From a phage, in the sequence record PQ724393.1: DNA of 64,000 nucleotides. One strand, given 5' to 3'. Both the position numbers and the translations under genes were made by a program. The notes under the pieces are model-generated. The model was not told the DNA's origin. It ran no database searches and saw only the letters and a list, made by a program, of their open reading frames with translations. Shown here piece by piece: positions 9,885 through 11,126 of this stretch (position 1 is the stretch's first letter; each line of letters starts with the position of its first letter).

Positions 9885-10499
9885 TCAGTAAGAAAGAACG
9901 GAAAGATTCCAAATGGTGTAATTATTCCATTTAGGATTTCTCTCAATAGAGTCTACGCGCAGCGTAGTTCCCGCAGGGAACATCATCTCATCTTCATCAT
10001 TGATTAATTGTAAGTTTGCTACACGGGTAGATTCAGGAAATGCACCTGGGAACTCTTCAGGGGGTGCAGCACATAACATTTTAAAGATTTCTTCCTGATA
10101 ATTGTATACAAATGGGGCATCATTAATACAAAAGATATTAAATGTTCCATAGAAGTTATAAGATGCAAAATTCCTTGCCACGTTGAAGTCTTTAGAGAAG
10201 CTCATTACTCGGTCGAATTCAATTACGGCACCTACACACATTGTGGACTCTAGGTACTTCATAGTCTTTTTAGATATACCGCGATAGAGCTTATCAGGCA
10301 CTACAGAAGTCAGGTTCTTACGGATGATTTTGTTCAGAGTTTCCTGGATACAGTCCGGTTTATTTTCCATACACTGCCAGAGGGTACTCTGTTCTAAATC
10401 AGAATACACCTCATCAATTTCTATCTGAGTATTCTCACGGAAATCATCGCATTTAGCGTTGTTGATAAATTCTGCTAATTTATGGCTTGGATATAACAT
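9885..10499 (-). CDS. modA: ADP-ribosyltransferase, ModA-like
   Basis: 204 aa; R-S-E triad candidates (LYRG, MSFSKD, DEDEMMF); tandem with second ART; T4 modA/modB position. Confidence 0.6.
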   Translation of the reverse strand: MLYPSHKLAEFINNAKCDDFRENTQIEIDEVYSDLEQSTLWQCMENKPDCIQETLNKIIRKNLTSVVPDKLYRGISKKTMKYLESTMCVGAVIEFDRVMSFSKDFNVARNFASYNFYGTFNIFCINDAPFVYNYQEEIFKMLCAAPPEEFPGAFPESTRVANLQLINDEDEMMFPAGTTLRVDSIERNPKWNNYTIWNLSVLSY

Positions 10500-10524
10500 A
10501 TTATTCTCCTCAGTCGATAGAAAG

Positions 10525-10554
10525 ATAGTACCACAAGATTCCTTGCCTGTAAAC
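10525..10554 (-). promoter_or_regulatory. early promoter upstream of modA-like gene
   Basis: GTTTAC-18-TACTAT; SD GAGGAGA. Confidence 0.55.
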
Positions 10555-11126
10555 TAAAAATCCAACATTTTTAAATGAATTGTTTTGTACTCGATTTCAT
10601 ACGGGTCTCTTTTGATAGTTTCGATTGCAACAATCTCAAATCGTGATAGGCTAGAGACCATGAACTCACATTCGGTTTCGACCATGTCATAGAGGTCGAT
10701 ACGTGTCTCGTTGATTCCATTGTCTTCTACATTACCTGCAAGAACAAGGTCGATAGCATGGTTGTAGTAATCGAAAATGAATGGCGCATTTCTGAGGCTT
10801 AAAATGGTTTTGGTTCCGTATTCCCATGCACCGGCGAATTGACGGGCTTGTGAGTACTGCGTGCTAAAAGAAGTAACACGCCCAGGAGACCATTGACAAC
10901 CTACCGTAAGAAATCTTAACTGTCTTAGTTCTTCTTGGGTAATCCCACGATACAACTCTACAGGAACAGCAGAAGTCATATGCTTACGAACCAGCTTGTC
11001 GAGGTCGTAATGGAAATTAGGGTCTTCTTTAGAATTCAGACATTTCTCTAACAACGCTTGTTCAGATTTTGAGAATTTGGAATTGATTCGGTCTTGATAA
11101 AGACACATTTCTTGTTCGATGTTCAT
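10554..11126 (-). CDS. modB: ADP-ribosyltransferase, ModB-like
   Basis: 190 aa; LYRG, TSFSTQ, ETECEF motifs; strong GTTTAC-17-TATAAT promoter upstream. Confidence 0.6.
   Translation of the reverse strand: MNIEQEMCLYQDRINSKFSKSEQALLEKCLNSKEDPNFHYDLDKLVRKHMTSAVPVELYRGITQEELRQLRFLTVGCQWSPGRVTSFSTQYSQARQFAGAWEYGTKTILSLRNAPFIFDYYNHAIDLVLAGNVEDNGINETRIDLYDMVETECEFMVSSLSRFEIVAIETIKRDPYEIEYKTIHLKMLDF

Follow-up and report, generated by a model that had tools for sequence, protein, structure and literature searches.

In this work we examine two adjacent open reading frames (ORFs) on the minus strand of a phage genome (sequence record PQ724393.1), situated in a 64,000-nucleotide stretch of DNA that is referred to throughout as the window. 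A preliminary description, made from the sequence alone, had taken the pair for tandem ADP-ribosyltransferases (ARTs) resembling ModA and ModB of phage T4, each with its own strong promoter and Shine-Dalgarno (SD) sequence, and had joined them with a macro-domain protein of the same phage in a toolkit for ADP-ribosylation and its reversal. The features on which our analysis turns are the following, the two ORFs being taken from the ORF list:

9885..10499, minus strand: ORF1, 204 amino acids (aa), putative modA orthologue
10554..11126, minus strand: ORF2, 190 aa, putative modB orthologue by position
10525..10554, minus strand: early-type promoter of the modA-like gene, with GTTTAC at 10554..10549, a spacing of 18 nt, TACTAT at 10530..10525 and TG upstream of the -10 hexamer
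11151..11179, minus strand: early-type promoter of the modB-like gene, with GTTTAC at 11179..11174, a spacing of 17 nt, TATAAT at 11156..11151 and TG before the -10 hexamer
11127..11152, minus strand: 10-bp hairpin of the modB leader, with its 5' arm at 11152..11143 and its 3' arm at 11136..11127
53585..54064, minus strand: Tk.4 (AdfM) macro-domain protein, 159 aa, Pfam Macro match of 33.4 bits (cut-off 22 bits)

We consider it highly probable (about 0.88) that the two ORFs are the modA and modB genes of a Dhakavirus, encoding T4-type early arginine-specific ARTs, with a hairpin gate in the modB leader, which is itself put forward more tentatively below, and with Tk.4 as an independent gene.

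Both ORFs match PHROG 832, 'RNA polymerase ADP-ribosylase' (E 1e-44 for ORF1 and 6e-37 for ORF2), BLASTP relates them to T4 ModA and ModB (E 1e-25, 4e-27 and 2e-24), and their synteny is that of the mod genes of T4, JS98 and RB69, which together bear out the proposal of tandem ModA/ModB-like transferases; Pfam PF26816 is a precomputed label on every homologue. Alignment to T4 ModA and ModB had been suggested as a check, with a missing catalytic Glu counting against the proposal, and this residue is present in both ORFs. The R / S-x-S / E-x-E motif takes the form LYR73G, S100-F-S102 and E169-D-E171 in ORF1, and LYR60G, S86-F-S88 and E152-C-E154 in ORF2. Residues R73-G74, S100, E169 and E171 of ORF1 and R60-G61, S86, E152 and E154 of ORF2 are invariant across a 54-member alignment and in an alignment with ModA and ModB of T4 and JS98, and the motif positions align with R73/G74 and E171/E173 of T4 ModB and with R72 and E163/E165 of T4 ModA, the T4 numbering having been checked against the T4 sequence and the published account (PMC10468400, Nature 2023). 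According to that study, ModA and ModB carry the R-S-EXE motif of arginine-specific ARTs, and the R73/G74 double mutation inactivates T4 ModB (PMC10468400).

Structure prediction leads to the same family. AlphaFold2 (AF2) models of the two proteins have pLDDT values of 92.9 (ORF1) and 89.7 (ORF2), and the top 50 Protein Data Bank (PDB) matches of each model in Foldseek are all R-S-E ADP-ribosyltransferases (E ~3e-6), including C3 exoenzymes, Certhrax, VIP2, CDTa, iota toxin, HopU1, XopAI and Tre1; the best matches among the predicted viral structures of BFVD are phage ModA/ModB proteins (TM 0.83-0.87). A sequence search of the PDB detected no related solved structure, and its matches to TrmB and a chitinase (E 0.008-0.3) were discarded as noise. 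With the C3-like and VIP2/iota-like toxins (C3bot, Certhrax, CDTa, HopU1, XopAI and Tre1) the enzymes of the window share the predicted catalytic fold and the motif class (TM 0.4-0.6) at an identity of only 10-17%. Unlike these toxins they have no secretion or translocation domain, the phage enzymes targeting host proteins inside the infected cell.

Both mod genes are under purifying selection: ORF1 differs from its JS98 counterpart by 28 synonymous and 2 non-synonymous changes (dN/dS 0.015), and dN/dS for ORF2 is ~0.1. These ratios bear on the suggestion that the ORFs are decoys or relics without catalytic activity, which has nothing in its favour beyond the lack of an above-threshold family match in local copies of Pfam and NCBIfam. 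The local Pfam-A scan, run on a copy that does not contain PF26816, gave only sub-threshold matches for ORF1 (DRAT at 13 bits and ADPrib_exo_Tox at 12 bits) and none for ORF2 or the T4 proteins, and NCBIfam yielded no usable match to ORF1 or ORF2. With the catalytic residues all intact, promoters and ribosome binding sites (RBSs) at both genes, confident ART folds predicted for both proteins and selection acting as described, we find it scarcely credible that the two genes are inactive.

The individual labels were considered from both sequence and position. ORF1 is 99% identical to JS98 ModA, 100% identical to the GenBank protein of phage fDHCT2, 58% identical to RB69 ModA and 39% identical to T4 ModA (E 1e-25), and ORF2 is 87-89% identical to Dhakavirus ModB proteins (87% to that of JS98), 64% identical to RB69 ModB and 32% identical to T4 ModB (E 2e-24). 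In a matrix of pairwise scores, T4 ModA reaches 85.5 bits to ORF1 and 72 bits to RB69 ModA, compared with <=43 bits to srd-distal proteins; ORF2 and T4 ModA score 24.6 bits by BLASTP, and this pair is absent from the matrix listing. Since these scores clearly set T4 ModA nearest to the srd-proximal group, ORF1 can be taken on these comparisons as the ModA orthologue. It agrees with T4 ModA (NP_049635), JS98 (YP_001595145) and RB69 (NP_861708) in its srd-adjacent position, size, R-S-ExE motif and predicted fold, with the difference that its N-terminal third resembles T4 ModB more than T4 ModA.

ORF2 would be ModB mainly by gene order, together with its clear distance from ModA, the label resting on gene order because T4 ModB is about equally similar to the two ORFs. 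ORF2 and T4 ModB (NP_049636) both lie upstream of modA, possess the R(73)G, S and ExE residues, and have an early promoter followed by a leader whose hairpin takes in the SD and the start. ORF2 is the shorter protein (190 vs 207 aa), without approximately 15 N-terminal residues and a loop before the ExE motif.

Besides the missing family matches in the local databases, several observations weigh against our reading: T4 ModB scores 89.7 bits to ORF1 and 82.4 bits to ORF2, in a neighbour-joining (NJ) tree of 80 Mod proteins the branches of T4 ModA and ModB are long and lie apart from both window clades, and the targets discussed below are carried over from T4 at only 32-39% identity. The first two would suit a history in which the Dhakavirus enzymes do not correspond one-to-one with those of T4, both having arisen from a ModB-like ancestor. 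Targets might then be split differently between them, and ORF1 could, for example, act on translation factors or perform RNAylation. In keeping with such a history, T4 ModB has its top-scoring match in the window with ORF1 and not with ORF2, an N-terminal EQSxLWQCME motif is common to ORF1 and T4 ModB, neither T4 protein is as near to the NJ clades of ORF1 and ORF2 as these clades are to one another and to single-copy Mod proteins, GenBank annotators named both fDHCT2 genes modB, and many T4-like phages have a single mod gene. We nevertheless regard a shared ModB-like origin as unlikely, though worth keeping in mind, since T4 ModA scores clearly higher to the srd-proximal proteins (85 and 72 bits) than to the distal ones (<=43 bits), its 39% identity to ORF1 is the highest cross-genus identity with T4, gene order is conserved, and the NJ tree lacks support values and suffers from long branches, for which reason pairwise scores and synteny were used for orthology instead. 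While we therefore keep ORF1 as ModA and ORF2 as ModB, outside Tequatrovirus these labels rest more on gene order than on sequence, and target specificities, including RNAylation, are not to be assumed from them.

Read as ModA and ModB, both ORFs would encode NAD-dependent, arginine-specific mono-ADP-ribosyltransferases of ~23 kDa with the R-S-ExE motif, made immediately after infection. In T4, ADP-ribosylation of Arg265 of the RNA polymerase alpha subunit by ModA abolishes UP-element and activator contacts (PMC2988021), and ModB modifies S1, EF-Tu, trigger factor and L2 and carries out RNAylation (PMC3014915, PMC10468400). By homology with T4, ORF1 may ADP-ribosylate Arg265 of both RNA polymerase alpha subunits, a modification that would block UP-element and activator contacts and so help to turn off host and early transcription. 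ORF2, on the same analogy, may modify the translation proteins S1, L2, EF-Tu and trigger factor; linkage of NAD-capped RNAs to these proteins (RNAylation) is a further possible activity. Both enzymes would act within the first minutes of infection, as is the case for T4, in which ModA and ModB are early proteins (PMC9697503).

The two genes have diverged unevenly from those of their relatives. In comparison with JS98 and fDHCT2 (loci L001 and L006), the modA-like gene shows 95-98% nucleotide identity and 0-2 amino-acid changes, and the modB-like gene 86-87% nucleotide identity and 26-30 non-synonymous differences, which suggests either mosaic exchange or a faster evolution of modB. That the modB-like gene diverges much faster than its neighbour with respect to the same relatives (86% vs 95-98%) can also be cited in favour of counter-defence as the main selective role of these enzymes, through the modification or evasion of host immunity proteins and not through the take-over of transcription and translation. 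As a main role we judge this improbable: modification of RNA polymerase alpha, S1, L2, EF-Tu and trigger factor has been demonstrated in T4 (PMC2988021, PMC3014915, PMC10468400), and a catalytic mutant of T4 ModB has a reduced burst on a laboratory strain (PMC10468400). The two roles are not mutually exclusive, and some contribution of the mod enzymes to counter-defence is possible alongside the take-over functions that we favour.

The preliminary description had placed a GTTTAC-spacer-TATAAT promoter before each gene. This is exact for the modB-like gene; at the modA-like gene the -10 hexamer reads TACTAT instead, with the T4 early geometry retained. The published T4 early consensus has GTTTAC at -36..-31, A at -11 and T at -7 (PMC1524935), and the geometry in the window fits it. 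The window contains 6 copies of the exact pattern GTTTAC-N16-18-TATAAT, where 0.09 would be expected, all of them on the minus strand, and 21 of the relaxed pattern GTTTAC-N16-18-TAnnnT, again exclusively on the minus (coding) strand; the sites are not a product of chance. Many early-type promoters of the window also have an extended conserved block after the -10 hexamer, TACTATAG(A/G)CCTATCAAC (minus strand, for example at 57821, 55485, 45721, 17528, 16571 and 6445).

The promoter of the modA-like gene, whose GTTTAC shares one base with the modB stop codon, is conserved in JS98, fDHCT2 and six Dhakavirus-like loci from IMG/VR, and RB69 modA likewise has an early promoter of its own. T4 modA has none, its start codon overlapping the modB stop as ATGA; modA is thereby translationally coupled to modB in T4, whereas in the window it follows modB after a 54-bp gap and has its own promoter. 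T4, RB69, Marfa and 20 other loci have an equivalent of the modB promoter ahead of their sole mod gene or, where there is more than one, of the first. The mod genes of the window would be expressed early, from sigma-70 early promoters.

The strong SD sequences claimed for the two genes are indeed there, GAGGAG (10511..10506, minus strand) lying 6 nt upstream of the ORF1 ATG and GGAGG (11135..11131, minus strand) lying 4 nt upstream of the ORF2 ATG (11126..11124). Their strength alone overstates mod expression, because the modB SD is contained in a conserved hairpin and the modA SD is a near-consensus site for the endoribonuclease RegB. The modA SD region (10509..10499, minus strand), GGAGAAUAAUA, fits the cleavage consensus of T4 RegB, GGAGAAUAAAA (PMC1702504), at 10 of 11 positions. 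Six other SD regions in the window fit this consensus within 2 mismatches, and a RegB orthologue is encoded at some distance from the mod genes:

54973..55428, minus strand: regB, encoding a RegB orthologue 98% identical to JS98 RegB

The 5' arm of the modB leader hairpin is made up of the final two bases of the -10 hexamer and the next eight bases, and its 3' arm of the SD GGAGG and the spacer up to the ATG. Its minimum free energy is -14.3 kcal/mol (z -4.6), a stability reached by none of 200 shuffles, and the modA leader is unstructured (-2.8 kcal/mol, z +0.6). The same architecture, built from different arm sequences, recurs in other T4-like loci ahead of their first or only mod gene:

4629..4665 of T4 (L002): mod leader hairpin, -18.0 kcal/mol
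1822..1858 of RB69 (L005): mod leader hairpin, -13.1 kcal/mol
2329..2365 of Klebsiella phage Marfa (L007): mod leader hairpin, -19.1 kcal/mol
2922..2958 of IMG/VR locus L023: mod leader hairpin, -12.4 kcal/mol
2287..2323 of IMG/VR locus L028: mod leader hairpin, -19.6 kcal/mol

Covariation was computed on a MAFFT alignment of 17 distinct T4-like leaders, in which 88.5% of cells are paired, compared with 37-66% when the partners are slid. Changes on both sides are seen in 7 of the 14 hairpin pairs, and the 24 compensatory cells compare with 8.3 in shuffles, a count of 24 being reached by none of 500. Positions of the discriminator region covary with the spacer between SD and AUG (G-C 9 / A-U 5; A-U 7 / G-C 7). 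These figures are conservative, since L023 and L026 are out of register in the alignment and were counted as unpaired although each folds its own 12-bp hairpin. Within the window, the modB leader is the only structured one among ~16 leaders that follow early promoters. Two other explanations of the structure were rejected: as a general property of early leaders it would not account for the 15 others, which have energies of -0.4 to -5.5 kcal/mol and z above -1.1, and as an intrinsic terminator it has no U-tract after it, the start codon coming directly next.

Transcription of modB probably starts 7 nt after the -10 hexamer, at ~11144/11143, which would place the start in the hairpin loop. A transcript from modB's own promoter would then be without eight of the ten stem pairs and would be translatable, and read-through transcripts would carry the full hairpin, with the RBS hidden. 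Promoter-like sites at 11536..11509 and ~13027 are possible sources of such read-through, and no convincing terminator was found between them and modB. The hairpin probably limits modB translation to transcripts begun at the gene's own early promoter. In its more general form, the proposal is that the hairpin is a conserved translational gate, through which only early-promoter transcripts expose the RBS and upstream early or middle read-through remains silent; we advance it tentatively, at somewhat less than even odds.

A comparable arrangement is known from the T4 genes e, soc, 49 and I-TevI, in which the SD and start are paired with a 5' arm that contains a promoter, so that only transcripts from the proximal promoter should be translatable (PMC3014915); modB is not listed in that review of RBS-sequestering structures of T4. 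These hairpins and that of modB have in common a stable helix in which the SD and the region of the start are paired, and the geometry at modB, with the -10 hexamer ending at 11151 and the probable start at ~11144/11143, would suit a proximal promoter placed in the 5' arm. They differ in that the nested promoter of e, soc, 49 and I-TevI is late (TATAAATA) and delays translation, whereas that of modB is an early sigma-70 promoter (GTTTAC/TATAAT), which would confine modB translation to the early period. As modification of RNA polymerase by Alt and ModA helps to shut early promoters, such a gate would make the synthesis of a toxic ADP-ribosyltransferase self-limiting, and in T4 it would do the same for the translationally coupled ModA.

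The gating role is tempered by its dependence on the putative start site given above. Moreover, T4 modB RNA can form a stable structure yet is cut by RegB in vivo (Durand et al., PMC1702504), and this cutting at the modB SD suggests that nascent RNA may sometimes fail to adopt the structure. Given the mention of a stable T4 modB leader structure in that paper, the hairpin is not wholly new, although no description of it as a conserved element was found in the searchable literature. It is a small regulatory element that lends itself to experiment, and it could account for the restriction of a toxic enzyme to the earliest minutes after infection.

The macro-domain protein of the preliminary description is present as well, as the product of the only macro-domain candidate in the window. 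Its gene lies between tk.3 and vs, as does tk.4 in T4, and the protein is a full-length orthologue of T4 Tk.4 (56% identity, E 1e-68), with DarG DNA ADP-ribosyl glycohydrolase as its best NCBIfam match. T4 tk.4 is needed to resist DarTG2 and has been renamed adfM, its product being thought to remove ADP-ribose from DNA (preprint, bioRxiv 10.1101/2025.11.20.689424). That the three genes occur in one genome and all concern ADP-ribose chemistry had led to the view that ModA and ModB write, and the macro-domain protein erases, modifications on the same substrates.

We consider such a reversible toolkit very improbable. The mod genes and the macro gene belong to different clusters, the latter to the tk-vs cluster 43 kb away, and to different transcription units, so that the genomic linkage expected of a writer and its eraser is not found. 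The macro-domain protein, as an orthologue of Tk.4/AdfM that resembles DarG, would protect against DNA ADP-ribosylation by DarT2. The products of ModB are N-glycosidic arginine adducts, which are removed by an ARH1-type hydrolase and not by O-glycoside-specific treatment (PMC10468400). Tk.4 homologues are also far more widespread, occurring in 2772 phage records that include Pseudomonas, Vibrio, Campylobacter and Bacillus phages, many of them outside the T4-like group, as against 1068 records with Mod homologues (~700 of them with two copies), which are T4-like enterobacterial phages throughout among the matches listed. Distance, orthology, the ARH1-removed linkage and the wider spread of Tk.4 together led us to reject the writer-eraser reading. 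Tk.4 is more likely an independent counter-defence gene directed against DarT2, in a conflict separate from that of the Mod enzymes. It is a gene outside the mod locus, with no link to Mod substrates seen, and in annotation the macro-domain protein is not to be read as a partner of Mod. The Tk.4 protein of the window is 94-95% identical to those of teqhad and KMB42, phages with Tequatrovirus-type names. Its identity falls to 76% with the protein of EcWhh-1, a phage closely related to the window in the mod region, and to 56% with that of T4 itself, a pattern that hints at exchange of this anti-defence gene between genera.

In the dda-soc early region the mod pair has srd on one side and the modA.2/modA.3 cluster on the other, and its neighbours were recognised by Pfam and PHROG matches as Dda.1 (Y01A), Srd and an Mrh-like protein:

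7368..8699: Dda helicase, downstream of Dda.1 in the direction of transcription
8696..8995: Dda.1/Y01A protein, downstream of the srd homologue
8997..9746: homologue of the anti-sigma protein Srd, downstream of ORF1
11600..12091: Mrh/ModA.3-like protein, upstream of ORF2, together with an 84-aa ORF and a modA.2-like ORF

The order dda, dda.1, srd, modA, modB, modA.2, modA.3 is identical to that of the annotated loci of T4, JS98 and RB69. By megablast, positions 9700-11300 match 62 phage records, of which JS98, AnYang and WG01 are the best, with ~92% DNA identity over a region that carries annotated srd, modA and modB. From this DNA identity to JS98 relatives and the same gene order, the window can be assigned to a JS98-like (Dhakavirus, T4-type) coliphage genome. 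The mod genes themselves are already known, modA and modB having been annotated years ago in JS98 and its relatives.

The 84-aa ORF (11179..11433, minus strand; PHROG 14077, of unknown function) separates modA.2 from the modB promoter, its stop codon adjoining the GTTTAC of the latter. Its sequence is also present in the JS98 RefSeq record, where it is not annotated, and it is apparently absent from fDHCT2 and several IMG/VR relatives, in which the modA.2 stop directly precedes the promoter.

At E<=1e-3 an exhaustive profile search returned 186 representatives; at E<=1e-30 the number was only 21 clusters, and the Mod family therefore appears to be compact and small. Among the weaker matches of the Mod-family profile are parts of proteins of 1,000-4,300 aa (P0075, P0085, P0087, P0093 and others), often over several stretches; such proteins may be polyvalent or toxin proteins of several domains, with a related ART domain among them. 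Two T4-like contigs from IMG/VR have apparently truncated mod genes (L014, ~3190..3567, 125 aa; L019, ~2941..3474, 177 aa), which may represent frameshifts or pseudogenes.

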